Shown: positions 29,881 to 51,224, counted from the first letter of the stretch. The stretch is DNA of 64,000 nt from Syntrophorhabdaceae bacterium (GCA_963666485.2 CAXXUO010000002.1:192001-256000); one strand, 5' to 3'. A program made the numbers and translations. The notes: generated by a model not told the origin, from the letters alone.

Positions 29881-30465
29881 ATGACCGAAACCGACCAGGA
29901 CCGCGAAGCCGCCCTCTATATCGACCGTATCATACGCGGCGATAAAGATGCCTTCTCCTTTATAATTAAGACGTACAAGATGTATGTTCTCAAGATCGTC
30001 AACCGCCACATACCCTACGAGGATGCCGAAGAGGTGGCGCATGACGCATTCATCCGCATCTATGAATCTCTTTCTCAATTCAAGGGACAGGGCGGGTTCA
30101 GGAACTGGATGGCCGCTATAGCGACCCGCACGTGTTACGACTACTGGCGGCGGGCGTACCGCTCGAAGGAAGTGCCCATGAGCTCGCTTGGCGATGAACA
30201 CCGTGAATGGCTGGAACGGGCAGCGTCCGGGACAGCGTCCGTGGAAGACATCGCCCGCGAGGCCGAGGCCCGCGAGGTGCTCGACTATGCTTTATCCAAA
30301 TTATCACCACAGGACAGGATGGTCCTCACGCTCATCTACATGGAAGGATTGTCGGTCCGCGAGGTCGCCGATCTCACCGGCTTCAGCGTGGCAAACGTGA
30401 AGATCAGGTCCTTCCGCTCGCGCAGGAAATTGCATAAGATCCTGAAAGATTCAGCCAGGAGATGA
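29881..30465 (+). CDS. ECF (sigma-70 group 4) RNA polymerase sigma factor
   Basis: Region 2 DAEEVAHDAF..FRNWMAAIATRTCYD; region 4 EGLSVREVADLTGFSVANVKIRSFRSR. Confidence 0.93.
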   Translation: MTETDQDREAALYIDRIIRGDKDAFSFIIKTYKMYVLKIVNRHIPYEDAEEVAHDAFIRIYESLSQFKGQGGFRNWMAAIATRTCYDYWRRAYRSKEVPMSSLGDEHREWLERAASGTASVEDIAREAEAREVLDYALSKLSPQDRMVLTLIYMEGLSVREVADLTGFSVANVKIRSFRSRRKLHKILKDSARR

Positions 30466-30478
30466 AAGGGGCAGGCAC

Positions 30479-30793
30479 ATGAAGAAAGAAGACAGGAACA
30501 TCGAAGAGGCTTTAGCCGCGGCACACCGGAGGCGTCAGGGGCCCGAGCCCGGCGAGGACTGGGAAGTGTCGGTTATGAGAAGCATACGGAATGTCGCCGG
30601 CGAATCGCAAGGGGTACGCTGGTCCGAGCTGATCGGGAGGCTTTTCTGGGAGATATGCCCCGCCGCGTGCGCTGTCATTATTTTCCTTGCGATCGCCACA
30701 TACCGGCTGAACGTCATCCCACCCGAGGACTTTGCCCAGATGGTGACGGCGGATGACACGATCGAAGTCATTATCGGCGACAGCAACGGTTAA
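30479..30793 (+). CDS. Putative single-TM anti-sigma factor
   Basis: Directly after the sigma gene; short cytoplasmic domain plus one TM helix. Confidence 0.65.
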   Translation: MKKEDRNIEEALAAAHRRRQGPEPGEDWEVSVMRSIRNVAGESQGVRWSELIGRLFWEICPAACAVIIFLAIATYRLNVIPPEDFAQMVTADDTIEVIIGDSNG

Positions 30794-30805: not shown

Positions 30806-31474
30806 ATGAATACCGTAAAACTGGTCGTTATATTTATTCTGGTCCTTGTCGTGGGGATATTCGCCGGCTCGCTGGGTACAAAGATATACCTGAAGCATGA
30901 GCTTCAAAGGACCGGCCCGGGCAGGCAGTCCTCCGAAGAAAAGGTGAACAGGATCGTCGGACGCCTGACGGAGGACCTCAAACTTGACGCCGGTCAACAG
31001 GACGAGGTCCGGAAGATCATCACGGCGACCGAGGCACGGGCAACAGGCCTCAAGGCACTGTACGAGCCGGACCTGAAAGAGATATACGACCGGAGCTTCG
31101 CGAGGATCGGTGAAAAACTGAATGCCGAACAGAAGATAAGACTTCTGAAAAGGCAGGAGAGATTTTCCTCCCGGTTCAACGCAATGTATTTCAGGTCATT
31201 GCAGGCCGCCCGGGCGGGGATACCGGACATGGAAACTATTTCCCGTCTTCTCAACCTCGATGCGTCCCGGCGCGAGCACGTACGGGCGGTCCTCAAAGAC
31301 CGGAAGGAACGGGAGGACCTCGTGATAGCGAAATATCAGAAACTGGAGCGGCCGGACCTCGCGGCACTCAGCGGGGACCTCAAGAAGATCCGCACCGACA
31401 CAGAGAAGGACCTTTCGCGTGTGCTTTCGAGCGATCAGCTCAGGCATTTCAAGACGGATGTCGAGGCCTACTGA
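30806..31474 (+). CDS. Membrane-anchored periplasmic helical protein (Spy/CpxP-like)
   Basis: N-terminal TM; repeated LKLDAGQQ / LNAEQK / LSSDQ (LTxxQ-like) motifs; AAGGAG RBS. Confidence 0.65.
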   Translation: MNTVKLVVIFILVLVVGIFAGSLGTKIYLKHELQRTGPGRQSSEEKVNRIVGRLTEDLKLDAGQQDEVRKIITATEARATGLKALYEPDLKEIYDRSFARIGEKLNAEQKIRLLKRQERFSSRFNAMYFRSLQAARAGIPDMETISRLLNLDASRREHVRAVLKDRKEREDLVIAKYQKLERPDLAALSGDLKKIRTDTEKDLSRVLSSDQLRHFKTDVEAY

Positions 31475-35404: not shown

Positions 35405-38308
35405 TTAACGGACCACGGCGATCGGGAAATCCTGGATCGTCTGCGGCTTTGCCGTTGTGGGCGTCTGCCTGCCCTGGGTTAACTCTTTTACTCTCTCGGA
35501 CAGGTAAAGGTCAAGCATATTGATGGTGACCCTGCCTTTCCCTGTCATGTCGGCCTTTCCGCCGAGACCGTCGATCAAGGCCCTCGTAAAAGCGCCGTTG
35601 TTCCACTTCTGGTCTTCGAGCGACTGCTGGCGCCCTGTCGACGATGTAAAAACGACAGCACCGTTCTCGGCACTGATCAGCTCGTTGACAATGCCGTCGA
35701 TGTTCGGCGCGATCGCCTTTGCCCCTCTTTTGCCGAGGACGTCGCCCGCATGGCAGGTATCCATGAAAACGATCACCTTGCCGGGAATCGATGCCACCGC
35801 GTCCTTGATATAGGTGAAAAGGACACTCGTCGACTCGAGCCGTGCCTTGTCAAAATCGGACGGTATGAAATAATACTGCCCCGAGCTGTTGTCCCCGTGT
35901 GACGACATAAATATCATGGCGACATCGTGCTGCGTCGCGGAGCGCTTGAGCCATTGCAGGCCATCAACGACATTTTCCCGGGTCGCCTGCGCATCCGTCA
36001 GGACCTTCGTCGAAACGTCGCGGTACAGCTTTCCTTTCTGGGCATTCATCGCGCCGGCGAAATCGATGGCATCTTTCGCGGCAAACTTCAGGTTGTTCTC
36101 GGGATGCTTCGTGTACCTGCTGACGCCGATGGCGAGAACGTACAGTTTCGGCTTGATCGTGAAGCCCTCGGCAGCCGGCTGCTGCGCGTTGGTCCTCATG
36201 ACCCGGACGGATGCGGCCTCGCTCGTCGTGTTCTTTGTCATCGCGATAACGCTTATCGTGTTCTGCGGCCCGTCGATCGCCACGTCGACAGTCCTCGCAA
36301 CCGATCCTTTGCCTGTCGACGGCCGTGTGCCTGCTCCCTCGAGGACGATGTCGCGCGCCTGCGGTATCGGGCGGCCGTCAACGAGGACCTTTATGCCGGT
36401 TACCGGCGCGCCGGACGGAGATTCCACGGAAAATTTTACAGGAACTGTATTCGCACCGACCCGGGCCCCGTCGGCGGGTGACGTTATGCGGACCACCGGC
36501 GGAAGGTTCCCGGCGATGGATGACTGTGCCGCCTGCTGACCGGATGCTGTGAGCGCCCCGCCTTCATCGTAGGTCGTCATGAGATTTGCCAGGACCTCGG
36601 GATGGTAATATGTTTTCCGGAACTGGGCGACGGGATAGAAGTACGCCTCCCGGTCCCAGCCGTTGTTGACATGCCAGCCAAGGATCGAATCAGCGCCGGG
36701 GCTCGCCGCGTAGTAACCGCGGGGCGTCCATGCCACCCAGGGTTTCCTCGGGCCGTCAAACCTGAGGACACGGAACATTGCAGCCAGTTGCGTCCCGTCG
36801 GATACCCGGTACCACCGTATCGTCCCGTCGTCATGGCCCACCACGAGCACCTTGCCGTTCTGCGAAACATTCGCGACCCACGGTACGGAGAAGGCACGTT
36901 TCTTCCATATGACTTTGCCGCTTGCGTCAAACCGGAAGATAGACCAGTTCGACCCGACGATAAAAGATTGCCCTCCCGGGACTATTACGGCGCTTCTCGC
37001 CATCTCATCCTTTCCAAGATCGATCTTCTGATCATTGAGCCTGAAGCCATCCCTGTCCCTGATGCCCGTCAATTTCATCCCGGGCGCAGAGCGGATGGGA
37101 TCGGCAAGTTCGGAATCACGCCCTGACGCGGCGTCAAAATCACCATCCACAAGGGAGAACCTGTACGTGATGGCCTGCTCTCTTCCGAAGACCAGGCCGA
37201 TCGCACTGCCGTCCCCGGAAACCCTGATGGTCGTGCTCCGATAATCAGTCCCCACATCGGACCTGGTGAACAGGCGCTTACCCTCCGGTGTGAATCCGCC
37301 GAGGATGGGGTCCGCCGTGGCATACACCACGTTCCCGCCGGGAATGGTCCGGGTGACAAGTATCGTATTGGCCCCGGACACCACCCACGTGACACTGCCC
37401 CTGCCCGCATCGTCAAAGACGCCTATGACGTATCTTCCGTCCCGGATATACGTGCCCCCGGCGATAAGCCTCTGACCGTCGGGCGACCATGCAACGGCTG
37501 CAAGGCCCTGATTTTTCTTGAGGCTGGAAAGATCGGGTGAATAGAGGAATTTCAGGTCGTCACCCGACAGGACCTCGATGTCCGGCGTGCCGGATATCCC
37601 TGCCGCAATGCGTTTGCCATCCGGAGAGAACCTGACCTGCGCGGCGTTGCCGGTACGCGTCCTGGCCCGCGCGATCTGTTTCAGGCCCCGGTCATACAGG
37701 ATCACATCCCCGTTTCCTGAAGAGGCTGCCCAGCGGCCTGACCGGTCACAATCGATGGTCCTGACAGCCCCGGAAAATTCCGGTGTTCGGGCGATACGCG
37801 CGAATGTGGCGGCATCCACCGTATGTATGCCGCCGGAGTTGAGGCCGACCGCCAGTATTTTCCCGTCGGACGAATACGCAAGATATCGCGGGCGGTCGGG
37901 AAACCCGTTCAATCGCTTCACCATCCTGCCTGACGCACGGTCGTAAAAATACAGGGAATAATCGTTCGGGGCAGAATTCGTAAAGCCGCCGAACGCGACC
38001 ACCTCTCCGTCAGGCGAGATCGCAGCCGCACTGATGACCCCCTGCGAGCCCTCGTCGATGGGGAAGCGCAGCGCTCTTACAAGTTTGCCGTCGGGCAGCG
38101 ACCAGATCCTCACCTGTTTTTCCGAAGCCGTTACCATGAACCTGCCGGCGGCGTCGATGGACATTGTATAGATCGCCGAATTATGCGTGCCCGTATCCAG
38201 TTGGATTATGGGGTTGGATGTCAGGGCGAGCCCCCCTGCCGGAACGATCAAAAGGAAGAGGGAAATCAATGCCGTCACGTGAAAAACCGCAACCGCCGTC
38301 TTGCGCAT
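35405..38308 (-). CDS. Exported WD40-repeat / Ig-like / caspase-family (peptidase C14) protein
   Basis: Signal peptide; many xSPDG/WD-type repeats; PPVVRITSP Ig-like domain; LYVLAIGVS; catalytic SSHG and DTCHAG; GGAGG RBS before the ATG at 38308. Confidence 0.9.
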   Translation of the reverse strand: MRKTAVAVFHVTALISLFLLIVPAGGLALTSNPIIQLDTGTHNSAIYTMSIDAAGRFMVTASEKQVRIWSLPDGKLVRALRFPIDEGSQGVISAAAISPDGEVVAFGGFTNSAPNDYSLYFYDRASGRMVKRLNGFPDRPRYLAYSSDGKILAVGLNSGGIHTVDAATFARIARTPEFSGAVRTIDCDRSGRWAASSGNGDVILYDRGLKQIARARTRTGNAAQVRFSPDGKRIAAGISGTPDIEVLSGDDLKFLYSPDLSSLKKNQGLAAVAWSPDGQRLIAGGTYIRDGRYVIGVFDDAGRGSVTWVVSGANTILVTRTIPGGNVVYATADPILGGFTPEGKRLFTRSDVGTDYRSTTIRVSGDGSAIGLVFGREQAITYRFSLVDGDFDAASGRDSELADPIRSAPGMKLTGIRDRDGFRLNDQKIDLGKDEMARSAVIVPGGQSFIVGSNWSIFRFDASGKVIWKKRAFSVPWVANVSQNGKVLVVGHDDGTIRWYRVSDGTQLAAMFRVLRFDGPRKPWVAWTPRGYYAASPGADSILGWHVNNGWDREAYFYPVAQFRKTYYHPEVLANLMTTYDEGGALTASGQQAAQSSIAGNLPPVVRITSPADGARVGANTVPVKFSVESPSGAPVTGIKVLVDGRPIPQARDIVLEGAGTRPSTGKGSVARTVDVAIDGPQNTISVIAMTKNTTSEAASVRVMRTNAQQPAAEGFTIKPKLYVLAIGVSRYTKHPENNLKFAAKDAIDFAGAMNAQKGKLYRDVSTKVLTDAQATRENVVDGLQWLKRSATQHDVAMIFMSSHGDNSSGQYYFIPSDFDKARLESTSVLFTYIKDAVASIPGKVIVFMDTCHAGDVLGKRGAKAIAPNIDGIVNELISAENGAVVFTSSTGRQQSLEDQKWNNGAFTRALIDGLGGKADMTGKGRVTINMLDLYLSERVKELTQGRQTPTTAKPQTIQDFPIAVVR

Positions 38309-38348
38309 AATGCCTCCCTTGCTATTGCGAGATATGATCCACCACGGG

Positions 38349-41300
38349 TCAGCGGATGCGCTGCACCGCGTATGTCCGCGAATCACCGCCTTCCGTCGCG
38401 CGGACCGTGCATGAGAACTGGTTGCCGCTTCCGTCCATCACAAAACTGAAGGTCCCCGAGTTCTTCGCATCGCTTGCTTCGCGGAAAGTACCCTTCGCCG
38501 TGTTGCCGGCAATGGTGCCTTCGAGCGGCCCTCCGAGTGTTTCCGTCTGACGTGCACCCGATGACGTCTTGTACGGGACATTGACCGAAAAAGTACCCGT
38601 GATGCGCGTACCGCTCGATGTCAGGCTGAAGGTAATGACCTCACCCTCGCGGCCGGCTGAGCTCTTCCATGAACCCGAAAATGACACCGCAGCCGCAGGG
38701 CCGTGCGAGGTCTCCACCGGTTTCGCGGTATATACCCTTCCCGTCTGGGTGCCCGGCTTGCTGGCGGCATACGAGGCTTCCAGCTGTTTCACATAATTTG
38801 CCATCGCGGTGTCGTTCGGCGCATACCTCAGGTATTCCCTGTATGCGGCAATCGCCTCGGGGATCTTGTTCTGTTTTTGCAATTGCTCGCCCTGCTGGCG
38901 CAGCTGCATGGCGTGCTGTGAATTCTTCTGGTCGGCGGCATATTTCGCTTCCAGTGTTTTTATGTAATTTGCCATCGCGGTGTCGTTCGGTGCATATTTC
39001 AGGTATTCCTTATACTTCATCACCGCTTCGGGGATCTTGTTCTGCTTCTGGAAGGCCTCACCTTCGGAACGCAGCACCTTCGCACGGGCCTCAATGGCCC
39101 TGGCGTCCGCCTGTTTCTTCAATTCCGCCTCGAGCTGCCGTATATAATCCTGCAATTTCGGGTCGGGCTGGCACTTCAGGCTTTCACGATACTTATCGAT
39201 GGCATCGGCGTATCTCTTCTGCTGCGCGAGGGCGTCACCCTGCTGGCGCAGGGCCTGGCACGCCTGTTTCGCTGCCGCTTGTTTTTTCAGCGAATCATCG
39301 AGCTGGGCTGCATATGTTACGCGCTGTTTGTTCCCCGGAGCACAGGCGATGTTCTCTTTGAACTTCGCGAGCGCATCGGCATGCTTGCCTGCATTGTAAA
39401 GCGCCTGGCCTTCGGTCCATTTGGCCTCGCACTTACGGGCCGCATCATCTTTCTTCGCCTTTGCCTGCTGCAATTCATTAAGCTTCCCCTTGAGCTTGTT
39501 CCCGTGGATCTCCATGTCCCCGTTGCGAGGACGGATCTTGAGGCCTTCTTCGGCCGAGGCTATGCCTTTTTTGATCGTCGCCTCGTCGAGAGGCTGCGTC
39601 GTCGTGGCAAGCCCGGCGACGTACGCATAAAGCTCCTTGAACCTCTTATCTTTGAGGCCCGCGTCTTCCTTGAGCTTCGAGTATTTTGCGTAGTCAGGGT
39701 CTTTGATGTCCCCGTTGTCCCGCATGGCCTTGAGCCCCTGTTCATAACTCGTTGAGGCCGCCTCGAAATTATAGGAGCGGTAATACTGGTCCCCCGTATT
39801 GAAGAAGGATTGCGCGTACGCCTTCGCGTTGGCATTCTTTTGCTTTTTCTCCATCGCCGCGGCAAGCTCATTTATCTGTGCCCGCCTCGGATCGTCGGCC
39901 TTGAAGCGCGCGGCTTTGTCCTTGAGTTCCTTGACGACCGCCGCGATCGCGTTCGGGTCCGAGGGTACACCCCGCGCGAAATTGGCCTTCGCGGTCTCGT
40001 AATACTGCATCGCGTCGCGCTTCATTGCGAGCATCGTGTTTATCGTCCCGAGCGCGGCTTCGTAGTGCTTTTTATCCGCAGGGTTCAGTTCATATGTCAG
40101 GACCTGCTTGACGTGGACCTCGGCCTTTTCCCAGTCCTCCGCCTTGAACAGGCGCGTCCATTCCGCGTTGCTCTTCTGCGAGAAGTCGTTGTACCATGCG
40201 ATCCCTTTATTGAAATCCGCCGTCACGCGGGCCCACAACGGGTTGGTCGACGCCTGTCCCCCTGCCTGTTCGCGCAGGATGTCCTGTATCTCGAGCATCG
40301 CCTTTTGGGCCGACCATATCTTTTTCTGTGCTATAAATGCATCGAATTCTTTTGTTTTTGCCTCGACGCGCGGCCATGCATCGGCGTATTTCTTCGCCTC
40401 TTCGAGCTTCTTTTTCGCATCGGCATCCGCGGGGTTGAGCTTTACCGCCTGTTCAAGCCGTTTTATCGCTTCTTTATGATCTGCCTTATTGAGGGCGTCC
40501 CATCCCATCTTCTTGCAGTCCTGCGAAAATTGGTTAAGAACGGGTGCGGCCAGTTTCGGGTCCGTCTTTGCCGCGTCTTCGGCGGCAGCAATTGCCTCAT
40601 CGTATTTCTTCTGCGACCAGAGCTGCTTTGCGGAGTCGAGCTTTTTCTTCGCCTCATCCTTTTTCTTGCCCGTCGACACGTCGGACTGGGAGATGGTGAC
40701 GCTGAGCGACCCGGTGCCGCTGCCTAAGTCCGCTCCATCGGCCGACTTGACGGCGCACGTCATCGTGTACGAACCGGTCTTGCTGCATGTTACCCCGGTT
40801 TCCTTTGACGATGGTCCCGAGATGCTGCAGCCTTCGGGGGCTACGGTCCACTGATAACGGAGATTTTCTGTGGCCGGGGTCACGCTCGCCGCGAACTCGA
40901 CCCGCTGCCCTTCCGCTATCTGGCGGTCCGCCGATACCAGCCCGACGCCTTCCTTCCAGATCATCGGGGGCGGCCCGGCGATCTTCGGGCCTGTTACGGT
41001 AACGGATGGTTTCTTCGCAGTAACCGTGATCTTTTCAACACCGATCTCATCGCCGCCGTCCTTTGCCTTCGCGTGAGCGGTCACGGTGACGGGTTTGTCA
41101 TCTTTCGGTTTATAGGTGTATGTCTTCTGGTCCTGTGTCGCGGCACCCCCGCTCTGCGTGTTGCCGGCTGCCTCCCACCAGTATGAGACGGTCTGCTGGT
41201 CGAGTTTGGGCTGTTCCGTCAGCGTAATCTTCACCTCCTGCCCGACAAGCGGTTCAGCAGGCTCGGCCTTCAGGGTTATCCCGGGCTTCACGACCTGGAT

Positions 41301-44300
41301 CTGTATCTGCTCCGATTCGCCGACCGTCATCTTCCGGCCGTCCACATCACGCTGGACAACGACCCAGACAGGTGTTGTCCCCGGCTTCCGGAAAGACGCC
41401 GTATTGCGTGACTGGGAACCGCCTTTCGTTTCGTATGTCGGGTTCTTCGGGTCGCCGAAAACAGCGTCGGGGTTGCGCTCCCATACAAATGAGAACGAAC
41501 CGCCCGCCGGTTTGTCGCCGGAAAAGACCTCAGCGAGGAAAGTCGCCTTCCCGCCTATCGGGATGCTGTTCTCCTTCGGGCTCTCCTTGGTGATCTTGAC
41601 CTTCAGGCCCGTGCACTGGATAGCCAGGCTGGCGGCTGCGCTGTTGTCATCCTGGTCCGTCACCGTGACGCTTGCGGTGCATGTCTTGCATTCACGGGTG
41701 TTCAGTACTTTTGCACGGTCTTCCTTTGCATCCTGGGCGCACCCGCCCCAGGTGAATTTGTATCCGCCGGATCCCTCGCTGGCCTCGGCTACGAGGTCGA
41801 CGATATCGCCAAAATCGGCGGGGTTCTTCGATGCGGTAAGTTTGACCGTAAGAGGCTTCGTGTGTTTCTTGTTCTGGTCGCGCCTCATCTTGTCGGCGAG
41901 CGCCGGGTCGTAGGTCCCCTTTCCATAAGCCCCTTCCCAGCAAGTCTTTGCGCAGTCGTTCGGGGCGCCGAAGCTATGCCGTCTGGTCGCTCCAAAGGCA
42001 CCTGCCCCGCCAAAACACGGGCCGGAGCTTTTTGCCTCGGGTATCGATTTCTCTTCCGGGTCCCACCATACGCCGATGTGCCCCGCCCAGCCGCAGTAGC
42101 ACCGGCACAGGCAGTTATAGTAGCGTGCGTCGAGTTCCTCTTTCGTCGGCGGCGGGGTGCAGCCCTGTTCCAGGGCGGGTTTGCCCCTTTCGACACAGTC
42201 GTCAGGCTTTGTTGCCGTAACGGTCCGCGTCTGTTTCTTCGTTGCCCTGCTGCATTCACCCCATTCGGAATATTCGTAAGAGCACGTGGGCGCCTCTTTT
42301 TTCGTCGTAGCCGCCGTATCGGTCGAGGGCGTGTCCGGCTTCTTCACATCCTGGGTCTTGTCCGGCGGCAGTTCTACAACAACCGTTGCGCAGCCTCTTT
42401 GTAACGCCTTGCCCGACAACCCGTCCTCAAGTGCGACGACCGGCAGGCCTGTGACATACCAGTCGTACTGTTCGGTCACACAGACCTCATAGTTCCCCGG
42501 GGTATCGAGGGTCAGTTCCGCCGCGCCCCTGTATTCTTTCAGCATTTCCCTGCCGTTTAAGGTCCAGACAAACTGCCGGCCGGAGCCCGGTTTCGCATGG
42601 ACCCCGCCGAGGCATTTCGCATGCTCTTCGATGTCCTTCCTGATCGCGGCCGTGTCTTTGCTGTCCGTCGCCGAAAGCCGGACGGTCCCCTTTTCTTTGA
42701 GCCGGGCCGGGCTTGCCGTGACAGTGATGCCCTGTTCTTCAAGGGACTGCCGCAGGGCATCCGTCTCGTTGACCTTGAGCTGGCGGTTGTCGAGCCACGT
42801 CTTCACCACAGGCTGAAGGCATTTATTGATGAGGGCCTGCTCAACCCCTTCGTCATGTTTTGACTCATAATCGTCATAATGTTTTGACGCGGCCTTGGCA
42901 TGGCACTTCAGAAGGGAGATCAGGTACGGCGGTATGAGTTCCTGCCGGAATTTGTGCCCCATCTCCAGGCTTTTCCTTAAGCCCTGGGAATCATATATCC
43001 GGCATGCGAGGCTCCCGTCATCGACAAGCTGTTCACACGTCTTGTCCTCGATATTCTGCTCCCTGCCGGGGACCGTGTAGATGCCGGCGATGAGGTCCAT
43101 GCAGTCCTGCCTGCTGACGACCGCCCCGTACCCGTACTGGCTGATCCAGTCGACAAGCAATTCCCCCGTGGTCATAAATATGACGCTGAACAACTGGGCA
43201 TAACCGAAGGTCGGGTTGGCGAGGCCTGCAATATTTGCCGCAAGGCGTGCACTTGCCTTTGCCGCCCCTTCCTTTTCGATGGCAGCCGGGAACTCCTTGA
43301 GCTCCCAGAGCATTATGAGCGACATGAACCAGTTCTTGTACGCGAACCTTGCGCCGCTCTGCAAGGTAGCGAGAGCACTTCCTGAGGCCTCTTCAAGGTT
43401 TACACGTAAAGTGGCCCACTTTCCCTCACCTTCGAGTATCCCCTTGAGAAAAGCCCGGTACCGCGCGGAAGCCTTCGCCGCCATTGCCTCGAGTGCGGTG
43501 AACTCGACATTGGCCTTTTTCGTCACCTCCGAGCCGAGCTTGTTTGCTATCTGCCTCGATTTGGCCAGCATTGCCTTTGCATCGTCGGCGGATTCAAATG
43601 CGGCCTTTATCGCGTCATCGACCTGGCCCTCGAGGCTGTCGAGGTCTTTCACCACGGCGCCTTCGGGGGTGACCCCGCCGAGCTGGCGTGCACTCTTCAG
43701 CCGGTCTTTCGCCCGTTTCAGGTTCTTCTTCGCCGTGTCGAGCTTCCCTTCTTTCAGCGCCTTCTGGGCTTCATTCAGGCTGTATTCCGCCGACTGCACG
43801 TACCCTTTCAGGTTGGCCTCACCTACCTGTTCGGCCGTGTGCTCCGCTTCCGCCGTCGCCTTGTGCACAAGTTCATATGAATCCGAACCCTCTTTTGCGA
43901 CAAGCTCCGAGACCTGGACCCTCTTACCTGTCTCGTATCCCTGGCGGATGAACTTCGTGGGGGTTGTGTAAAGGCCCTCCGCCGCATCCTCACCCACCTC
44001 GAGGAGGTTCGGGTAATTCCCCATCTTGAGGAATTTGGCGATCGCCTCTTCATTCTGCTCGATCCCTTTCATGAGCTGGGCGGGCGGATAGAAATTGACC
44101 GATTTCAAAAGCAGCTGGATCTGTTCCGTGCTGTATCCCGCCTTCTGGGCCATAGCGAAGATCTTCTTCCTGAGCCGGCCCTGGAAGGCTTTCCAGACCT
44201 CTCGCGCCCGTTCAGGTGACACATCATCCAGCGAGATGAACAACCGGGCGTCATGGTCGGACGGGTCCGCAAGATTGAGAAGGGGGTTCCTGTAGCCTTC

Positions 44301-44483
44301 GCCGGATATCCAGGACCCCTGTTTGATGACCTTGAGGAATGGGTTGCCCATATCCAGGAGGACCCCGTCCATCGCCTGGCTGACAAGATGCGACGGCTCC
44401 ACGGAGACCGCGAAGAGCAAGGCCGGGAATACCAGGGAAAAGATAATGACAGCTGCCGTGGCCAGATGTTTCGGGGTGCGCAT
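38349..44483 (-). CDS. 2044-aa exported multidomain protein (helical N-region, TSP1-like repeat, Cys-rich domain, Ig/PKD-like domains, TPRs, C-terminal beta domain)
   Basis: Single long ORF with signal peptide and GGAGGG RBS; CSYEYSEWGECS..QTRTV..C; several YxW Ig-like modules; TPRs (EAIKRLEQAVKLNPAD). Confidence 0.85.
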   Translation of the reverse strand: MRTPKHLATAAVIIFSLVFPALLFAVSVEPSHLVSQAMDGVLLDMGNPFLKVIKQGSWISGEGYRNPLLNLADPSDHDARLFISLDDVSPERAREVWKAFQGRLRKKIFAMAQKAGYSTEQIQLLLKSVNFYPPAQLMKGIEQNEEAIAKFLKMGNYPNLLEVGEDAAEGLYTTPTKFIRQGYETGKRVQVSELVAKEGSDSYELVHKATAEAEHTAEQVGEANLKGYVQSAEYSLNEAQKALKEGKLDTAKKNLKRAKDRLKSARQLGGVTPEGAVVKDLDSLEGQVDDAIKAAFESADDAKAMLAKSRQIANKLGSEVTKKANVEFTALEAMAAKASARYRAFLKGILEGEGKWATLRVNLEEASGSALATLQSGARFAYKNWFMSLIMLWELKEFPAAIEKEGAAKASARLAANIAGLANPTFGYAQLFSVIFMTTGELLVDWISQYGYGAVVSRQDCMDLIAGIYTVPGREQNIEDKTCEQLVDDGSLACRIYDSQGLRKSLEMGHKFRQELIPPYLISLLKCHAKAASKHYDDYESKHDEGVEQALINKCLQPVVKTWLDNRQLKVNETDALRQSLEEQGITVTASPARLKEKGTVRLSATDSKDTAAIRKDIEEHAKCLGGVHAKPGSGRQFVWTLNGREMLKEYRGAAELTLDTPGNYEVCVTEQYDWYVTGLPVVALEDGLSGKALQRGCATVVVELPPDKTQDVKKPDTPSTDTAATTKKEAPTCSYEYSEWGECSRATKKQTRTVTATKPDDCVERGKPALEQGCTPPPTKEELDARYYNCLCRCYCGWAGHIGVWWDPEEKSIPEAKSSGPCFGGAGAFGATRRHSFGAPNDCAKTCWEGAYGKGTYDPALADKMRRDQNKKHTKPLTVKLTASKNPADFGDIVDLVAEASEGSGGYKFTWGGCAQDAKEDRAKVLNTRECKTCTASVTVTDQDDNSAAASLAIQCTGLKVKITKESPKENSIPIGGKATFLAEVFSGDKPAGGSFSFVWERNPDAVFGDPKNPTYETKGGSQSRNTASFRKPGTTPVWVVVQRDVDGRKMTVGESEQIQIQVVKPGITLKAEPAEPLVGQEVKITLTEQPKLDQQTVSYWWEAAGNTQSGGAATQDQKTYTYKPKDDKPVTVTAHAKAKDGGDEIGVEKITVTAKKPSVTVTGPKIAGPPPMIWKEGVGLVSADRQIAEGQRVEFAASVTPATENLRYQWTVAPEGCSISGPSSKETGVTCSKTGSYTMTCAVKSADGADLGSGTGSLSVTISQSDVSTGKKKDEAKKKLDSAKQLWSQKKYDEAIAAAEDAAKTDPKLAAPVLNQFSQDCKKMGWDALNKADHKEAIKRLEQAVKLNPADADAKKKLEEAKKYADAWPRVEAKTKEFDAFIAQKKIWSAQKAMLEIQDILREQAGGQASTNPLWARVTADFNKGIAWYNDFSQKSNAEWTRLFKAEDWEKAEVHVKQVLTYELNPADKKHYEAALGTINTMLAMKRDAMQYYETAKANFARGVPSDPNAIAAVVKELKDKAARFKADDPRRAQINELAAAMEKKQKNANAKAYAQSFFNTGDQYYRSYNFEAASTSYEQGLKAMRDNGDIKDPDYAKYSKLKEDAGLKDKRFKELYAYVAGLATTTQPLDEATIKKGIASAEEGLKIRPRNGDMEIHGNKLKGKLNELQQAKAKKDDAARKCEAKWTEGQALYNAGKHADALAKFKENIACAPGNKQRVTYAAQLDDSLKKQAAAKQACQALRQQGDALAQQKRYADAIDKYRESLKCQPDPKLQDYIRQLEAELKKQADARAIEARAKVLRSEGEAFQKQNKIPEAVMKYKEYLKYAPNDTAMANYIKTLEAKYAADQKNSQHAMQLRQQGEQLQKQNKIPEAIAAYREYLRYAPNDTAMANYVKQLEASYAASKPGTQTGRVYTAKPVETSHGPAAAVSFSGSWKSSAGREGEVITFSLTSSGTRITGTFSVNVPYKTSSGARQTETLGGPLEGTIAGNTAKGTFREASDAKNSGTFSFVMDGSGNQFSCTVRATEGGDSRTYAVQRIR

Positions 44484-44580
44484 GCAATCCCTCCGGATAT
44501 TTGTTATAAGGGTATCAGGTCAATCCTGATGAAAAGATATGGGCGGCGAAGGCATCGATACATCCTCCGCCCCGATTAGC

Positions 44581-44609
44581 AATATATTAGTCGTACAATG
44601 TATTGTCAA
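44581..44609 (-). promoter_or_regulatory. Sigma70-type promoter for the leftward arm of the caspase locus
   Basis: TTGACA-N17-TATATT on the - strand. Confidence 0.6.
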
Positions 44610-44671
44610 CATATTTTAGCAATCCCGTTTTTCCTTGTTTTTAAAGGTATTTTCGGCACCTTTATCTCTCG

Positions 44672-44701
44672 TTGACAAAATTTTCAGCTCATGGTTATAC
44701 T
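44672..44701 (+). promoter_or_regulatory. Sigma70-type promoter for the rightward arm of the caspase locus
   Basis: TTGACA-N18-TATACT. Confidence 0.6.
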
Positions 44702-44817
44702 ACGTTCAACAGGAATCTTTTTGGGGTGGACATTCCGCGTTTAATCTCGTTAGCGCATGTCCCGTTTTCACCAGGCATCAGAAGTTAAAAAACATTTATT
44801 TTTACATGGAGGTTGGT

Positions 44818-45678
44818 ATGAAAGCATTACCTTCAGTCATTGCAGTTGTCGTCCTTTCACTTTTCATTCTCGGCCTCGCGGGCGAAGCCCCGGCGGGACC
44901 ATCCGGTGCAAAAGCGATCTTTGACAGCGGTGAAGGGCCTGCAGTCCGGATGTCATCAGGCGGCGGGACCGCAAAACCGGCCACGCAGACGGCTTCAGCT
45001 CCTGCCAGAGAAAAATATGTCGGTGTATCCTATAAGCTTGTACTCCTGCGCGACAATGGCTCCTTTGACATTGTCAGCAAGGCGCGTACCTTCCGTACCG
45101 GCGAGAAGATAAAGCTCCTCGTCCGGACCAACAGGCCCGGCTACCTCACGATCATGAATATCGGTACGTCCGGCAACTCAACCGTCCTGTGCAGCGAGCA
45201 GGTAGAGCCCGGCGCAATGGTAGAGATCCCGAGAACGGGTAATTTCCGGTTCTCCGGCCCTGCGGGAACAGAAAAGCTTCTCGTCATGCTTTCGTCCCAG
45301 CCGAATCCCATGGGCGGACCTTCGTCATCGACGGTAGCATCCGCACCGCCCCCTCCTCCGGCTGATGCATCCTCCACGGCTGCACTTCCCCCGCCGCCTC
45401 CTCCGGGTTCGTCGGACGCGGCAAACGTGCCGCCTCCACCGCCTCCGAGCGGCGCGGTCATGACGGCGTCACTTGAGGGCTCCAAGGATATAACGCTCGA
45501 CAGCAACGGCACGAGTTATGGCGTCGTTAACCCGAAAAAAGGCTGGAAGCCCGAAGCACGCGGGAAAAAAGACATTATCATGGAATCGGCGGGTGGTGAG
45601 AATTTCGGCGTCGTGCCTGCATCATATGTGGCGGACGGCAGCATACTCACGCTCGAAATAAAGCTCAAACACAGATAA
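44818..45678 (+). CDS. Exported DUF4384-like protein with polyproline linker
   Basis: Signal peptide; FRTGEKIKLLVRTNRPGYLTIMN...FSGPAGTEKLLVMLS pattern; three poly-Pro tracts; GGAGG RBS before the ATG at 44818. Confidence 0.8.
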   Translation: MKALPSVIAVVVLSLFILGLAGEAPAGPSGAKAIFDSGEGPAVRMSSGGGTAKPATQTASAPAREKYVGVSYKLVLLRDNGSFDIVSKARTFRTGEKIKLLVRTNRPGYLTIMNIGTSGNSTVLCSEQVEPGAMVEIPRTGNFRFSGPAGTEKLLVMLSSQPNPMGGPSSSTVASAPPPPPADASSTAALPPPPPPGSSDAANVPPPPPPSGAVMTASLEGSKDITLDSNGTSYGVVNPKKGWKPEARGKKDIIMESAGGENFGVVPASYVADGSILTLEIKLKHR

Positions 45679-45687
45679 GGAGCGGCT

Positions 45688-46515
45688 ATGAAGAAAGAAA
45701 GTATCAGGTTTCTCATCATTGCTTTCATCGGGGTATTCTTCCTGTACTCGTGCGCTTCCATGCTGCCGAATCCCGATGAGATAAAAACGGAAGAAGACCG
45801 CATTCGGGCGAGAAATCAATGCATAGCTATGTATACAGCCGGTGGAGCCCTCGGCGGTGCCATTATCGGCGGACTGATCGGCGGCGATTGGAAGGGGGCC
45901 GGTATTGGTGCCGCGATCGGGGGCGGTATCGGTTTCGCATATGCCTGGGGTAAATGCCTTTCACTGTACTCCACCCTGAAAAGCACCCAGACGGCAGGTT
46001 ACCAGGAGACTGCGCAGAAGACCGGGTACAATCAGTCGCAGGGCGAAGTCGTCAAGATACAGAGGTTCAACATCACTCCGGTATCCGTCGCGCAAGGCGG
46101 CTCGGTTAAACTGAACGGCTCCTATTATGTCATGGCCCCTCCCGACCGGAAAGAGATCAAGGTGACGGAAACGCGGATCGTGAAGTATTTCGATCCTTCC
46201 AAGAAAGAGTTCGTCGATCTCGGACAGGTAGACCAGGAAGTGACCGCAGCACCGGGAACGCGGACTGCGGACGGCTCTTTCGACATTCCCAAGGATGTCC
46301 CGGAAGGCCGCTATAAAATCGCATTTGTCGTCAATGCAGAAGGCAAGTCGGACATGGTCGAGCGTGAGCTCACTGTCCGGAAAGGGACCGCGTATGTCCC
46401 CGGCTTTAACATGCAGGCCTTCGACCGGCCGGTTACGTACTCCGCCCAGCAGGTCATGATCGTTGAGGAGGTTTCCCTGCTCCACAGAACGGCAGGCGGG
46501 TCTGTCGTGAGGTAA
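45688..46515 (+). CDS. Glycine-zipper lipoprotein with C-terminal Ig-like domain
   Basis: Lipobox LYSC; GGALGGAIIGGLIGG..GAGIGAAIGGGIG; FDIPKDVPEGRYKI. Confidence 0.8.
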   Translation: MKKESIRFLIIAFIGVFFLYSCASMLPNPDEIKTEEDRIRARNQCIAMYTAGGALGGAIIGGLIGGDWKGAGIGAAIGGGIGFAYAWGKCLSLYSTLKSTQTAGYQETAQKTGYNQSQGEVVKIQRFNITPVSVAQGGSVKLNGSYYVMAPPDRKEIKVTETRIVKYFDPSKKEFVDLGQVDQEVTAAPGTRTADGSFDIPKDVPEGRYKIAFVVNAEGKSDMVERELTVRKGTAYVPGFNMQAFDRPVTYSAQQVMIVEEVSLLHRTAGGSVVR

Positions 46516-46520
46516 GAGAT

Positions 46521-47765
46521 ATGAAGCTTCTGAAGATCCTTTTTTGTGCTGCACTTTGCCTGGCCTTCCTTGCTGCCCCGGGCGGCAGGGTGTGTGCCCA
46601 GACATCGCCGGTTACAGACGGACATTTAAATGCCATCAACAACAGTTTCAAGCAGAACAGGGTAACGAACGGTTTCGCTGAACTCGACTCGTATGGCCGG
46701 GTCCAGCTTAAAGGCGGATACGAGGACGACAGGCAGGTTGACCTGGCCTTCTCGCTTGCCCAGCAGATCGTCGGTGTAAAATGGGTCTCCCCCGTCACCC
46801 CGGACAATATCAAGGTCAAGGAATGGGAGAAAAGGATCGGCGGTCTTTTCAGCCGGGCCCGCGTTATCAAGGAGGTTGGACCTGACTCGTCCGTGCCGGG
46901 TTCGGTGCGCAACCGGTACGCCCTGGTCGTCGGTGTCGGCCAGTTCAAGTACGGTATCCAGTCCCTGCAGTACACGGTGCGGGATGCCTCCAGTTTTTAC
47001 AGCTTTCTCGTGAATCCGCAGGGAGCGGGGTTTCCCCGCAACAACGTGTATTACCTGACCGACCAGACGGCAACCCGGGACAATATCGTGAAATACCTCA
47101 ATACCATCAAGTCCCAGGCGGGGCCGGACGACCTCGTGGTCATTTACATGTCGAGCCACGGGACGCCCCCCGATAAGTTTGGCGGTGTTCACATCGTTAC
47201 GTACGACACCGAGGTGAAACCGCGTGAGAAGGTCTGGCACACGGCTATCACGGAACAGATGCTCAAGGACTTTGTTGAGAATTTAAGGTCAAAGCGTCTT
47301 GTGATGATCCTCGATACGTGCTACAGCAACGGCGCCTACCGCTCCATACCCGGTTTTCTGCCGCCGGGCGGCAAATCCCTTGGCGCAGACGAAGATGAGG
47401 GATACGGCATATCCCGTGACTACGGAAAACGGCTTCTCGGGTCCAAGGACATCGTCCTCGATGACGAGCCGAAGAAAAAAAGCTCGGGCAAGAGCATAGA
47501 CAGCCAGGACGGGTACGGCAAGGTCCTCCTGTCTGCCAGTAGCGCCGGAGAAAAATCCTGGGAATCCGACAGTCTCAAGAACAGCGTCTTCACGTACTAT
47601 TTCGTCGACGGTTTAAAGCGGTATAACGGTTCCGTAAAAGATGCATTTACATATTCCAAGCCGCTTGTTTCCCAGAGGGTAAAACAGGAAAAGGGCGCCG
47701 ATATTTCGCAGACCCCGCAGGCGATGGCGACGAGCGACAACTGGAACATGCGCATTACGAAATAA
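46521..47765 (+). CDS. Exported caspase-family (peptidase C14) protease with N-terminal BON-like domain
   Basis: Signal peptide; GRVQLKG...QIVGVKWV (BON-like); RYALVVGV; catalytic SSHG and DTCYS; SVFTYYFVDGL and QTPQ. Confidence 0.9.
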   Translation: MKLLKILFCAALCLAFLAAPGGRVCAQTSPVTDGHLNAINNSFKQNRVTNGFAELDSYGRVQLKGGYEDDRQVDLAFSLAQQIVGVKWVSPVTPDNIKVKEWEKRIGGLFSRARVIKEVGPDSSVPGSVRNRYALVVGVGQFKYGIQSLQYTVRDASSFYSFLVNPQGAGFPRNNVYYLTDQTATRDNIVKYLNTIKSQAGPDDLVVIYMSSHGTPPDKFGGVHIVTYDTEVKPREKVWHTAITEQMLKDFVENLRSKRLVMILDTCYSNGAYRSIPGFLPPGGKSLGADEDEGYGISRDYGKRLLGSKDIVLDDEPKKKSSGKSIDSQDGYGKVLLSASSAGEKSWESDSLKNSVFTYYFVDGLKRYNGSVKDAFTYSKPLVSQRVKQEKGADISQTPQAMATSDNWNMRITK

Positions 47766-47800: not shown

Positions 47801-48451
47801 ATGAGGAAAATGGTATTCGTTGTGACGATAGCATTTCTGGTGTCTATCGGGTTGATGGGAACGGGCTGCGACAAGATGCCGTGGAACAAGCCGAAAGCGG
47901 AGCCTCCGCAGCAGGCAGCACCGCCGCCGCCTCCGCCGCCGCCTGCGCAGGAAGAGAAGAAAGCCGAGCCTGCGGCCGCTCCTGACAAGAAAGCAGCATC
48001 AGGCGAACCGAGTGAAGCCGCCAAGGCGAACCTGAAACAGGCAATGCAGTACATCAATACAGCGAAGAGTACCAAAACCAATCGCAAAGAGAACATAGAG
48101 AATGCAATAGCCGAATATACGAACGCGATCAATAAAGACCCGAATTATGCCGAGGCCTATGCAGGACGGGCCGGTGCATATATGCTGCAGGACAAGAACA
48201 ATAAAGCCCTCGATGACCTCAAGAAGGCAAAAGAGTTGAAACCTGACAGCGCGAGCATCCGTTACAACCTGGCATGCGTCCATTCATTGATGGGAAATAC
48301 CGACTATGGCCTCGATGAACTCGACGCAGCGCTTTCCAAGGGTTTCAATGACTACGACTCCCTGAGGAAGGACCCGGACATCAACAATCTCCGGAAAAAA
48401 GCGGAATTTCAGAAGATACTGGAAAAACACAAGGTGTTTATCACGAAGTAA
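47801..48451 (+). CDS. TPR-repeat lipoprotein with Pro8 linker
   Basis: Lipobox-like GTGC; TPRs; terminal YNLACVHS..DPDINNLR (TPR end-type). Confidence 0.85.
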   Translation: MRKMVFVVTIAFLVSIGLMGTGCDKMPWNKPKAEPPQQAAPPPPPPPPAQEEKKAEPAAAPDKKAASGEPSEAAKANLKQAMQYINTAKSTKTNRKENIENAIAEYTNAINKDPNYAEAYAGRAGAYMLQDKNNKALDDLKKAKELKPDSASIRYNLACVHSLMGNTDYGLDELDAALSKGFNDYDSLRKDPDINNLRKKAEFQKILEKHKVFITK

Positions 48452-49382: not shown

Positions 49383-51224
49383 CTACGACTTTCTATCGTC
49401 CACTACAATTTTGAGTTTTGCGTTTTTATTTATCTTATTCCCTTTTAACTTATTCGCCGCTTTAAGATCGTCTATGTCGACACCGTATTTATCGGATATG
49501 GAGCTGAGGGTCTCACCTTTTTTCACCGTGTGATATTTAACTTTTTTGGACCGGGCGGACTCGGTCTTTTTCGTTTCCGCCTTCGGCTCGACGTGACTTA
49601 CGAGCCGGAGCTTCATGTTGGGGTAGACCTTGCCGCCCTTGAGCTTATTTGTCGAGCGCAGGCTGTCCTCGTCTATTCCGTAACGGTCACTGATATCGGA
49701 GAGGGTCTCACCGCGTTTGACGACGTGATATGTCTTGAACACACGGGTCGCTGACCGGCCTTTGGCAGGGGGAGTCTCAGACGGTTTTTCAACTATTTTT
49801 GGTGATGCGGATGATCTCACGGTTGCTACGAGGACCGGTTTGTCGCCGGCATTTTTCTTGACCGTTCTCAGTTCGCTCACGGTAGGTGTATCGTCGCTGT
49901 CAACAGGGGCGATCTTTTCATCTGTATCGGCCCGGGCAACGGACTCACGGACCCTCTCTCCCGAGAACCTGGGTATGGCAAGGACCATGCCGGGCTTTAT
50001 CTTGAGGTCGTTATCGCTTGAATTCAGAAGAAGGAGGTCTCTCTGGTCGATCTTGTGCTTCTTCAGGATACTCGCGACACTGTCCCTTTTTTTGACCTTG
50101 TATGTCGTAATGCTTTTCAGGACCGGAATACTCTCAAGTTCGGGCCCAAGACGTTCGTAAAAGGCCTGGGCGGTTACGTCGGAAGGAAGTTTGACAACGT
50201 AATCTTTCCCCGGCGGGGTTATGCCTCTCAAGATCTCCGGGTTGAAGGTCCGAATGAGGTCGATATCCACGAGCGACGCCTTTGCGATCGTTGTGATCGG
50301 GGTGGCGGGAGGCACCTTTGCCTCTGTGAACCTGATCGGCGGGTCGTAGGTTATATTGCCGAAACCGAATTTTGCCGGGTCCTTTGCGATAATGGCGGCT
50401 GCGATCAACTGCGGGACATATTCGCGGGTCTCCCGGGGAAGCGTGTTGTACCTGTGAAGTTCCCAGAAATCCATCGTGTTGTGTTTTTGCGTCAACCTGC
50501 CTATCCTGCCCTCGCCGGCATTATAGCTCGCAGCGGCCAGGTACCAGCACCCGAATTGGTCGAACAGGGCTTTGAGGTATTTTGCAGCGGCTACCGTGGA
50601 CTTTTCGGGGTCCCGGCGCTCATCGACCCAGTAGTTGACCTCCAGGCCGAATCGCCCTCCCGTCGAATAGATGAATTGCCAGGGGCCGGACGCCCGGGCG
50701 GTGGAATATGCCTTCGGGTTGAACCCGCTCTCTATCATGGCCAGGTACACAAGGTCCTCGGGCATGTCGTTTTCGCGAAGTATTTCCCGTATAATTGGCA
50801 CGTAGAGTTTTGATCTCCTCAGCCAGTTGGCGAAGACCTTCTTCTTGTCCTCGGAGAACCATCTTATGTAATATTTGACAGCATCGTTGAAAACGATGGG
50901 GATATCGAAATTCTGGCTGTAATTGGTGCTCAGCAATTTTGTGATATCATCCTCGTCGTTGACCTTCATTTCCAGGCAATACCGGCCCGGCTTGGTCTTT
51001 TCCTGTTCCTCGCCGGTCTTCAATTCGCCCGGTTTGGTCTTTGAGGGCTTCACAGCGGTCTTTTTTGGTTTCGTAACGGCAGGCGCATCAGCCGGGCGGG
51101 AGGGCGGGGTATACGCATCGGCCACCGGTAGAGGTGTATCGGCGTTCTGGCTGGAGATATTATTGCCGGTTGCACATCCGGCGACAATAAGAACGAGTGT
51201 AGCCAAGAACCAGTATCGCTTCAT
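49383..51224 (-). CDS. mltD: Membrane-bound lytic murein transglycosylase D-like lipoprotein (SLT + LysM repeats)
   Basis: Lipobox VAGC; LAMIESGFNP, ASGPWQF, AASYNAGEG and ETREYVP; three LysM domains. Confidence 0.9.
   Translation of the reverse strand: MKRYWFLATLVLIVAGCATGNNISSQNADTPLPVADAYTPPSRPADAPAVTKPKKTAVKPSKTKPGELKTGEEQEKTKPGRYCLEMKVNDEDDITKLLSTNYSQNFDIPIVFNDAVKYYIRWFSEDKKKVFANWLRRSKLYVPIIREILRENDMPEDLVYLAMIESGFNPKAYSTARASGPWQFIYSTGGRFGLEVNYWVDERRDPEKSTVAAAKYLKALFDQFGCWYLAAASYNAGEGRIGRLTQKHNTMDFWELHRYNTLPRETREYVPQLIAAAIIAKDPAKFGFGNITYDPPIRFTEAKVPPATPITTIAKASLVDIDLIRTFNPEILRGITPPGKDYVVKLPSDVTAQAFYERLGPELESIPVLKSITTYKVKKRDSVASILKKHKIDQRDLLLLNSSDNDLKIKPGMVLAIPRFSGERVRESVARADTDEKIAPVDSDDTPTVSELRTVKKNAGDKPVLVATVRSSASPKIVEKPSETPPAKGRSATRVFKTYHVVKRGETLSDISDRYGIDEDSLRSTNKLKGGKVYPNMKLRLVSHVEPKAETKKTESARSKKVKYHTVKKGETLSSISDKYGVDIDDLKAANKLKGNKINKNAKLKIVVDDRKS

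Follow-up and report, generated by a model that had tools for sequence, protein, structure and literature searches.

Why does an exported caspase-family protease carry, in the linker of its catalytic domain, the same short Lys-centered peptides that recur in a separate secreted protein encoded two genes upstream? This question is raised by a stretch of 64,000 nucleotides from a Syntrophorhabdaceae bacterium (GCA_963666485.2 CAXXUO010000002.1:192001-256000), which we call the window and whose numbering is used for all coordinates below. The original prediction had listed K/R-D-I-x-L/M-D/E and GAKAI motifs in two caspases and a DUF4384-like protein of this locus as candidate cleavage or docking sites of a Lys/Arg-directed code. 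Comparison with relatives suggests, at a probability of roughly 0.55, that the shared motifs are recognition sites with Lys (Arg in a distant branch) at P1, read by the protease encoded beside them. On the same comparison, the DUF4384 neighbor is probably the caspase's own substrate or regulator. The four genes and the sites within them are as follows.

44818 to 45678, plus strand: gene of the DUF4384 protein (the partner); likely start at ATG 44818 (MKALPS...), the mechanical open reading frame (ORF) running from 44635
44905 to 44919, plus strand: GAKAI at the mature N terminus of the partner (class A site), beginning about 4 residues past the likely signal-peptide cut
45478 to 45501, plus strand: GSKDITLD, partner repeat R1 (class B site), where a predicted disordered Pro-rich loop ends
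45562 to 45585, plus strand: GKKDIIME, partner repeat R2 (class B site), leading into a predicted β-strand of the sandwich
45688 to 46515, plus strand: gene of a Gly-zipper lipoprotein with a C-terminal beta domain and weak Pfam Gly-zipper matches, the second gene of the cassette
46521 to 47765, plus strand: gene of a secreted caspase-family protease (Peptidase_C14; the "BON-like" caspase) with an N-terminal alpha-beta-beta-alpha domain
47367 to 47384, plus strand: GGKSLG, caspase residues 283 to 288 (class A site), the first invariant Lys site of the p20-p10 linker
47439 to 47462, plus strand: GSKDIVLD, caspase residues 307 to 314 (class B site), the second linker Lys site, 40 residues past the catalytic Cys267
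47801 to 48451, plus strand: gene of a TPR lipoprotein with TPR Pfam matches, the fourth gene of the cassette

The partner matches PF14326 with 45.4 bits (Pfam cutoff, 27) over residues 152 to 223 of the 347-residue ORF; its residues are numbered here in the 285-residue form, a start chosen because the homologues open with MK. The cassette caspase belongs to the C14 family, with a match to PF00656 of 71.5 bits (cutoff, 21.4) over residues 132 to 401. Hydrophobic signal-like N termini were seen by eye in the translations of all locus proteins, closed by a Cys in both lipoproteins. The name "BON" given earlier to this caspase found no backing in Pfam, since residues 27 to 125 match no family there even at E ≤ 1. 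This region is modeled as helix-strand-strand-helix, and we take its N-terminal consensus to look BON-like by eye only, so the label is unconfirmed by Pfam.

All six motif instances of the original prediction, two of them in a WD40-caspase considered further below, are present in the locus translations at the places claimed. In a crude proteome of the window's genome (3,152 ORFs of at least 100 amino acids; 1,129,916 amino acids) and with patterns defined after the data had been seen, [KR]DI.[LM][DE] occurs 20 times, including 4 times in the two caspases and the DUF4384 protein and 4 times in an unrelated response-regulator tail, SGYT[KR]DI[IV]LDKG. The stricter pattern G[SK]KDI[IVT][LM][DE] occurs three times, every one in this locus, and GAKAI four times, twice within this locus. 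The SGYT[KR]DI[IV]LDKG tails end four large paralogues of the response-regulator/histidine-kinase type (C1:536038-539772, C1:1071699-1074845, C3:195752-197776, and C4:240178-242448), and these paralogues explain a good part of the KDIxLD background of the genome. When sequences were shuffled 2,000 times, an exact 5-mer was shared with the DUF4384 protein in 11.5% of shuffles for the BON-like caspase and in 29% for the WD40-caspase. Motif sharing in a single genome is therefore weak evidence and by itself not significant; what carries the argument is how well the motifs are kept in relatives.

The partner has 298 homologues at E ≤ 1e-3 among 3,909 candidates, at about 50% identity over the full length, and PF14326 was found in 120/120 of the homologues among the matches listed. 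A scan of species-representative genomes gave 65 loci with a partner relative. In all 57 loci whose caspase coverage was at least 90%, the DUF4384, Gly-zipper lipoprotein, and caspase genes follow one another in this order and share a strand; a Gly-zipper lipoprotein orthologue lies between the other two genes in 53 loci (coverage of at least 80%), and in 54 the caspase gene is followed directly by an orthologue of the TPR lipoprotein gene. Such loci were found in Syntrophorhabdaceae, Syntrophales, Nitrospirota including Thermodesulfovibrionales, a Desulfatibacillum, and Burkholderiales such as Rhodoferax and Ideonella, the closest loci being those of Syntrophorhabdus and related Desulfobacterota. 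As read from these genomes, the DUF4384 protein, the Gly-zipper lipoprotein, the caspase, and the TPR lipoprotein form a conserved four-gene cassette, of predicted envelope location, at more than 50 loci in Desulfobacterota, Nitrospirota, and Burkholderiales.

Both linker sites are kept throughout. G[SA]KD[IL] and GGKS[LI]G each occur in the p20-p10 linker of 58/58 caspase orthologues, where the catalytic Cys is followed in every case by PGFLP[PA]GGKS[LI]G, about 20 residues, G[SA]KD[IL]V, a stretch of variable length and sequence, and the first p10 strand. The partner shows an invariant GAKA[IL]FDSG[ED]G just past the signal peptide, with G29, A30, K31, A32, F34, D35, S36, G37, and G39 unchanged in alignments of 22 and 41 homologues; G220, K222, and D223 of R1 and G248, K250, D251, and E255 of R2 are invariant in the homologue alignments as well. 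Scored by column over the partner orthologues, [KR][DAS][IL]-hydrophobic is found at the N-terminal site in 56/56, at R1 in 56/56, and at R2 in 53/56, the remaining three reading KDM, and a G[SA]KD[IL]-type site occurs twice in 53/53 scorable partner proteins. Across the four cassette proteins, only four columns have at least 60% matches to [KR][DAS][IL]-hydrophobic, namely caspase 309 and partner 31, 222, and 250; no such column was found in the Gly-zipper and TPR lipoproteins in this orthologue scan. The motifs of the BON-caspase and of the DUF4384 protein are thus kept at homologous loci, as the original prediction required.

From the alignments, the sites fall into two classes, both represented in the caspase linker: class A, G-[GA]-K-[SA]-[LI], and class B, G-[SA]-K-D-[IL]-V. 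Class A comprises GGKSLG of the linker and GAKAIF of the partner, the former being the likely counterpart of the partner GAKAI, and class B comprises one linker copy together with R1 and R2. The last two make up a tandem repeat at the partner C terminus, G[SA]KDI[VT]..D...Y.V[IV].P..GWKP (R1) followed by G.KDI[VI][LV]ES..G.N[YF]GV[VI]P (R2), and resemble each other with P = 1.9e-4 (hhalign). The profile of the caspase linker matches R1 with P = 0.0038 and R2 with P = 0.0042, both weak, and the match spans the following [YW]G.V strand. We also considered whether the repeat is a mobile module and rejected this: its profile gave 51 matches at E ≤ 1e-3 among 1.84 billion representative proteins, nearly all of 240 to 330 amino acids with the module at the C terminus, or fragments, and because this architecture is the same in nearly all matches, the repeat belongs to the DUF4384 partner family (P0286, P0287, and P0294 among the matches are unrelated repeat proteins). 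Gene conversion between site copies was ruled out as a recent cause, since their DNA differs at synonymous positions.

Is the cassette caspase of a kind that would read such sites? Its model (mean predicted local distance difference test score [pLDDT], 75) shows a C14 core, with strand 259 to 266 running up to Cys267 and the next core strand at 333 to 338; residues 276 to 328 between them, holding both Lys sites, have a pLDDT below 50. Foldseek returned 348 PDB matches at E ≤ 1e-3, the best being metacaspases, MALT1, and GSU0716 (E = 2e-11 to 1e-9), and the modeled protein has the caspase-hemoglobinase fold. S211, H213, D265, C267, S346, and E348 are invariant in 46 aligned caspases, and the catalytic dyad of the C14 family, H213 (SSHG) and C267 (DTC), is present in 46/46. 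According to a preprint on the Arabidopsis type II metacaspase AtMC4 (PDB 6W8R/6W8S), Asp137, Ser84, Asp352, and Ser350 form the pocket that holds Lys225 of the linker. A PDB profile search matched the cassette caspase to AtMC4 (6w8s) with E = 4e-8, placing S211/H213 on Ser84/His86 and D265/C267 on Asp137/Cys139, while S346-W-E348, unaligned by the profile, would correspond to Ser350/Asp352 by spacing only. With Asp before the Cys, Ser before the His, and Ser-x-acid in p10, the cassette caspase carries the predicted acidic S1 pocket of the Lys/Arg type.

The AlphaFold2 model of the partner (mean pLDDT, 69) is an Ig-like sandwich built from residues 66 to 158 and 231 to 285. The N-terminal tail (residues 28 to 60), which bears GAKAIFDSGEG, is disordered, with a pLDDT below 50; a disordered Pro-rich loop between the sandwich halves ends in R1, whose residues 222 to 225 are also below 50, and R2 leads into the predicted strand 253 to 257 of the folded sandwich. 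No PDB match to the partner was found by Foldseek at E ≤ 1e-3, a wide structural search gave generic Ig/MG-like sandwiches only (Z ≤ 7.8), and the ESM Atlas returned unnamed DUF4384 clusters only.

We infer from these data that the motifs would bind in the caspase active site and be cleaved there, with the following consequences. The caspase would be Lys specific, or Arg specific in the distant branch, recognizing G-x-K with Asp or a small residue next and Ile or Leu after that. Self-processing, as in metacaspases, would take place in the linker at GGK-SLG and/or G[SA]K-D[IL]V, after which the caspase would cut the copies in the partner or be held in check by them as pseudosubstrates. These copies would be GAK-A[IL]F at the mature N terminus, G[SA]K-DI[VT] at the loop end (R1), and G.K-DI[VI] on the next strand (R2), and cleavage at R1 would open the loop that joins the two halves of the sandwich. 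R1 and the N-terminal site appear the better candidates for real cuts because they lie in flexible parts of the model, and R2 may be only the duplicated twin of R1.

The residue after K-D offers a closer look at how the two proteins change together. It is Ile in 44 and Leu in 14 of the 58 caspase linkers, and the linker, R1, and R2 agree on Ile versus Leu in 53/53 loci readable at all three class B sites; 41 of these loci are Ile-type, with Met at R2 in three, and 12 are Leu-type. With the motif masked, a caspase tree puts the Leu-type loci in three separate places, a Burkholderiales clade, L052/L063 (with L045), and L062, and L041, whose partner gene is incomplete, makes a fourth. The tree calls for four changes in the caspase; R1 and R2 need three apiece, on the same branches, and the three caspase changes that are testable are all concordant. 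L052 and L063 moreover share a Glu-to-Val replacement in both the linker (KDLVIVD) and R1 (KDLVLVD). As a control, caspase residue 311 is the sole caspase column that separates the Ile and Leu types in all four clades, and partner residues 224 and 252 separate them completely.

A second, deeper change concerns the basic residue itself. In eight distant family members, Arg replaces Lys at the partner N-terminal site, R1, and R2, which read [AV]R[SAG]LF, [TA]R.L[VI], and TR.LVV, and R1 and R2 share the residue after Arg in 6/8. Of the representatives in which all three sites could be read, 17 have Lys and 8 have Arg throughout, the latter being seven scored by script plus P0290, which the script had scored RRK through a spurious later match and which is all-Arg in the alignment. 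A metagenome scan with a four-sequence alignment yielded ten Arg-type loci. Where a caspase gene neighbors the partner (L066, L068, L070, and L075), its linker is short and reads DACRDNPF..SGR[NAS]IGG(T)RGL[AS].T in 4/4, and MAFFT sets SGR[NAS]IG under GGKSLG and G(T)RGLA under GSKDIV. A TPR lipoprotein, 37 to 42% identical, stands beside the Arg-type DUF4384 genes in seven loci, whereas the Gly-zipper lipoprotein was not found at Arg-type loci; the TPR lipoprotein is thus the only accessory component kept in both systems. The strict retention of a basic residue, and its change from Lys to Arg in the enzyme linker and all partner sites together, favor an active site as the reader. Together with the invariant linker, the matched Ile/Leu variation, and the AtMC4-like S1 residues, this argues that the Lys/Arg-directed code proposed earlier applies to the cassette caspase and its partner.

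Two observations on these branches may be added. The Arg-type caspases (L068:1195-3393 and L070:574-2832) are built differently, from an unknown N-terminal domain of about 300 amino acids, a long Glu/Lys/Ala-rich coiled-coil-like stretch, and a C14 domain whose linker is very short. A search for further Arg-type loci in 400 genomes from the class to which the L047 genome belongs gave two matches, L047's own and the Lys-type L093, which carries GAKSIFDSGYG, CGSKDLYIDG, CGAKDLLVEE, a Gly-zipper lipoprotein, and a caspase start but ends before the linker; no claim made here rests on L093.

Could the likeness still be a coincidence, with the motifs kept for separate structural reasons and the matched variation due to the shared ancestry of neighboring genes? 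The frequency of a shared 5-mer between caspase and partner in the single-genome shuffles would agree with this, as would the small number of independent switches (sign test, p = 0.5) and the behavior of the WD40-caspase motifs described below. It leaves unexplained, however, why the sites are invariant in 58/58 caspases and 56/56 partners inside otherwise variable, disordered stretches, and why three separate Ile/Leu switches and one Lys/Arg switch are concordant across two proteins; the synonymous differences between the copies also imply that the peptides themselves are under selection. We consider coincidence very unlikely.

A different explanation keeps the selection on the peptides and moves the reader elsewhere: the motifs would be docking peptides for a third component, likeliest the TPR lipoprotein, which would gather the caspase by its linker and the DUF4384 protein by its three copies at the outer membrane, with the active site taking no part in reading them. 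TPR domains bind short linear peptides, and this lipoprotein is the one other component common to the Lys-type and Arg-type systems; the motifs lie in segments predicted to be disordered, and no column of the caspase pocket follows Ile versus Leu. Against docking, no column of the TPR lipoprotein follows Ile versus Leu either: only two columns reach 80%, both in one clade and in a variable N-terminal stretch. When the Gly-zipper lipoprotein was included in the same search for a possible motif reader, no convincing column was found in it, in the TPR lipoprotein, or in the caspase. Moreover, in Lys/Arg-type C14 proteases the p20-p10 linker is the classic place of self-processing, and it is there that the basic residue is strictly kept. 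Docking to a third component is, on balance, unlikely.

The hhalign matches and the partner model bring up still another possibility, namely that the motifs are pairing β-strands. A strand of the caspase linker would add to the partner sandwich, or replace R1 or R2 in it, giving a stable noncovalent complex that involves no cleavage, and the Ile/Leu match would follow from packing. R2 is indeed a predicted strand of the sandwich and R1 its tandem copy just before the C-terminal strands, the likeness of linker and repeats runs on into the [YW]G.V strand (P of about 0.004), and the Ile/Leu match is found at exactly three positions. Strand pairing does not account, however, for the invariance of the N-terminal GAKA[IL]F and of GGKSLG, nor for the joint change from Lys to Arg at all sites with loss of the Asp (TRSLVV), and AlphaFold2 models neither the linker nor R1 as a strand. 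We regard it as doubtful.

The reading of the motifs as recognition sites of the cassette's own protease meets difficulties as well. The Ile/Leu sign test could draw on 2 pairs if only well-supported branches are counted and on 3 if all are, too few independent pairs to reach significance; partner residues 14, 49, and 240 separate the Ile and Leu types as completely as residues 224 and 252 do; and among caspase columns near the active site, none tracks Ile versus Leu. The partner sites themselves are uneven. R2 lies on a predicted strand of the folded sandwich, a poor place for a cleavage site, and cleavage at the N-terminal GAK-A would shorten the mature partner by only about 6 residues. The distant Lys-type members P0263, P0268, and P0270 keep R1 (G[AS]KDIVLED) and are without the Lys of R2 (e.g., SSTNMMVES), P0267 has lost the Lys of R1, and P0269 is mixed (K, R, K); the loss of the R2 or R1 Lys in these members indicates that, at the level of sequence, the three partner sites are not equally indispensable. 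On the enzyme side, an Arg-rich linker is general to a very large caspase family (117/120 among the matches listed), so that the linker motif is not specific to pairing with a partner; if many Arg-linker caspases are without a partner, it would appear that the partner copies the enzyme rather than the reverse. The pocket residues, S/D/S/E in the Lys type and A/D/A/D in the Arg type, give a single deep contrast, and the WD40-caspase family combines an S/D/S/E pocket with an invariant linker Arg, which speaks against a simple pocket rule.

A more far-reaching form of recognition by the cassette caspase would make the DUF4384 protein a dedicated decoy or timer of the exported caspase, with two-site mimicry in three copies set in flexible parts of an Ig-like body; in this lineage the WD40-caspase may have gained a matching GAK-AI, giving a two-caspase cascade. 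Because the partner copies both self-processing sites, it would compete with the zymogen's linker for the active site, and its consumption would set the release of the protease at the outer membrane, the co-evolving site code being readable as Lys-Asp-Ile, Lys-Asp-Leu, or Arg-Ser/Gly-Leu. We think this scheme rather unlikely; if true, it would bring to the envelope a kind of control known from caspase inhibitors or bait proteins.

The WD40-caspase, the other caspase in which shared motifs had been reported, gave a different picture.

35405 to 38386, minus strand: gene of the WD40-caspase; Pfam WD40 (two propeller regions), Big_7 (Ig-like), and Peptidase_C14; start probably M27
36338 to 36358, minus strand: ARDIVLE, WD40-caspase residues 677 to 683, read in translation
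35711 to 35725, minus strand: GAKAI, WD40-caspase residues 888 to 892, ten residues past Cys878

In a set of 121 proteins (the window protein and the 120 best of 1,640 matches), the strict ARDIVLE-type pattern occurs in 10 and a relaxed one in 16, GAKAI in 4 and G[AT]K[AS][IF] in 9, and these motifs are confined to the small clade that includes the window protein. As for the Arg of ARDIVLE, 100/121 have it within an R-x-hydrophobic-x-hydrophobic pattern after the Ig-like domain, and because this pattern is strand-like, it suggests that the region is a structural strand. In the linker, Arg887 is present in 121/121 and Lys890 in 10/121; the window clade has a three-residue insertion that creates G[AT]KAI (35696 to 35731, minus strand; residues 885 to 895), while the rest of the family has R-R-G after Arg887. 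MAFFT sets GAKAIAP of this protein under GSKDIVL, the class B site of the cassette caspase. Among five other genomes with the cassette, a WD40-caspase match is found in four, none beside the cassette; the linkers there read SRRAVADI or TRKALGDI (three genomes), without GAKAI, and the Ig-like strand reads IRGVAA (two genomes), without RDIVLE. The gene adjoins the cassette in the window and L001 only. The ARDIVLE and GAKAI of the WD40-caspase are, on this comparison, most probably chance likenesses, a feature of one clade; nothing supports a lineage-specific link of its GAKAI to the cassette, and by gene content the WD40-caspase is not a conserved cassette member. Of the motifs said to be common to both caspases and the DUF4384 protein, those of the BON-caspase and the DUF4384 protein therefore stand, whereas a place for the WD40-caspase in the Lys/Arg-directed code is not supported.

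The gene between the WD40-caspase and the cassette is transcribed divergently from the latter.

38349 to 44483, minus strand: gene of an exported TPR/PKD protein of 2,044 amino acids; Pfam TPR_2 and PKD

This protein also has Cys-rich stretches, and no conserved Lys motif was seen in it by eye. At no fewer than 15 loci the cassette has a neighbor homologous to the N-terminal part of this protein, upstream in L001 to L009, L035, and L036 and downstream in L034, L051, L053, and L055; the gene thus adjoins the cassette often, not always. Farther away in the window, an ECF-type sigma factor gene (29740 to 30465, plus strand) is followed by ORFs at 30479 to 30793 and 30806 to 31474 without Pfam matches, possibly an anti-sigma pair. 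A further envelope protein encoded near the cassette is a lytic transglycosylase (SLT) with three LysM repeats (49383 to 51224, minus strand).

How does this system compare with those already described? To our knowledge, no natural substrate or regulator of a bacterial caspase homologue has been established, a question that none of our searches put. In the available text of the literature mentioning DUF4384, supplementary files lying outside the search, neither the cassette nor the shared motif is described, and the available text of the literature on orthocaspases with periplasm, or on Syntrophorhabdus with caspase, likewise holds no account of the cassette.

On the enzyme side, the closest precedent is AtMC4, with which the cassette caspase shares the C14 fold and a conserved Lys in the p20-p10 linker. 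In the preprint on this enzyme, AtMC4 cleaves itself first at Lys225 and then at other linker sites, and its substrate Propep1 is likewise cut after that first step. The cassette caspase differs in being bacterial and exported, with an N-terminal alpha-beta-beta-alpha domain, and in having a linker of about 65 residues predicted to be disordered, whereas AtMC4 has a folded linker domain. The foremost difference is that here an operon partner repeats both linker sites, self-cleavage itself being only predicted. The orthocaspases, the caspase homologues of prokaryotes, have a His-Cys dyad and cleave behind basic residues (PMC6426788), and their accessory domains include DUF4384 and WD40 (PMC7475262). 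There, DUF4384 accompanies the enzyme as a domain; here it is a separate secreted protein whose gene lies two upstream of that of the caspase.

For an adjacent enzyme and substrate with a DUF4384-type domain, Craspase is the closest precedent in the available accounts: the caspase-like protease Csx29 (CHAT-type) and its own substrate Csx30 are encoded side by side, and the cut falls at a hairpin or linker beside a β-rich C-terminal domain. Craspase differs in being cytoplasmic and RNA guided, with Met at P1, and in belonging to another branch of clan CD, and these accounts do not report repeated copies of a linker motif. The modeled partner may recall bait-region proteins of the alpha-2-macroglobulin/complement C3 kind, being an Ig/MG-like sandwich interrupted by a long flexible loop with a candidate cleavage site. 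The partner, however, is a single-domain protein, the top structural matches are unrelated Ig-like domains, and its Z scores against MG domains of alpha-2-macroglobulin, C3, C4, C5, and TEP1 (6.2 to 6.9) are within the Ig-like background (Z < 8).

Set against these systems, a metacaspase-like enzyme with candidate self-processing sites in its linker, together with an operon partner that copies those sites, appears from the sequences to be a new combination. Export and the tie to lipoproteins suggest that the system acts in the cell envelope, unlike the cytoplasmic functions in cell death or defense that are commonly considered for these enzymes. By comparison of sequences alone, a particular enzyme and partner are singled out, together with the very residues to mutate and with natural variants in specificity (KDI, KDL, and the Arg type). 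Should the partner be a substrate or a decoy, protease and target would have kept a short site code matched over long evolutionary distances.

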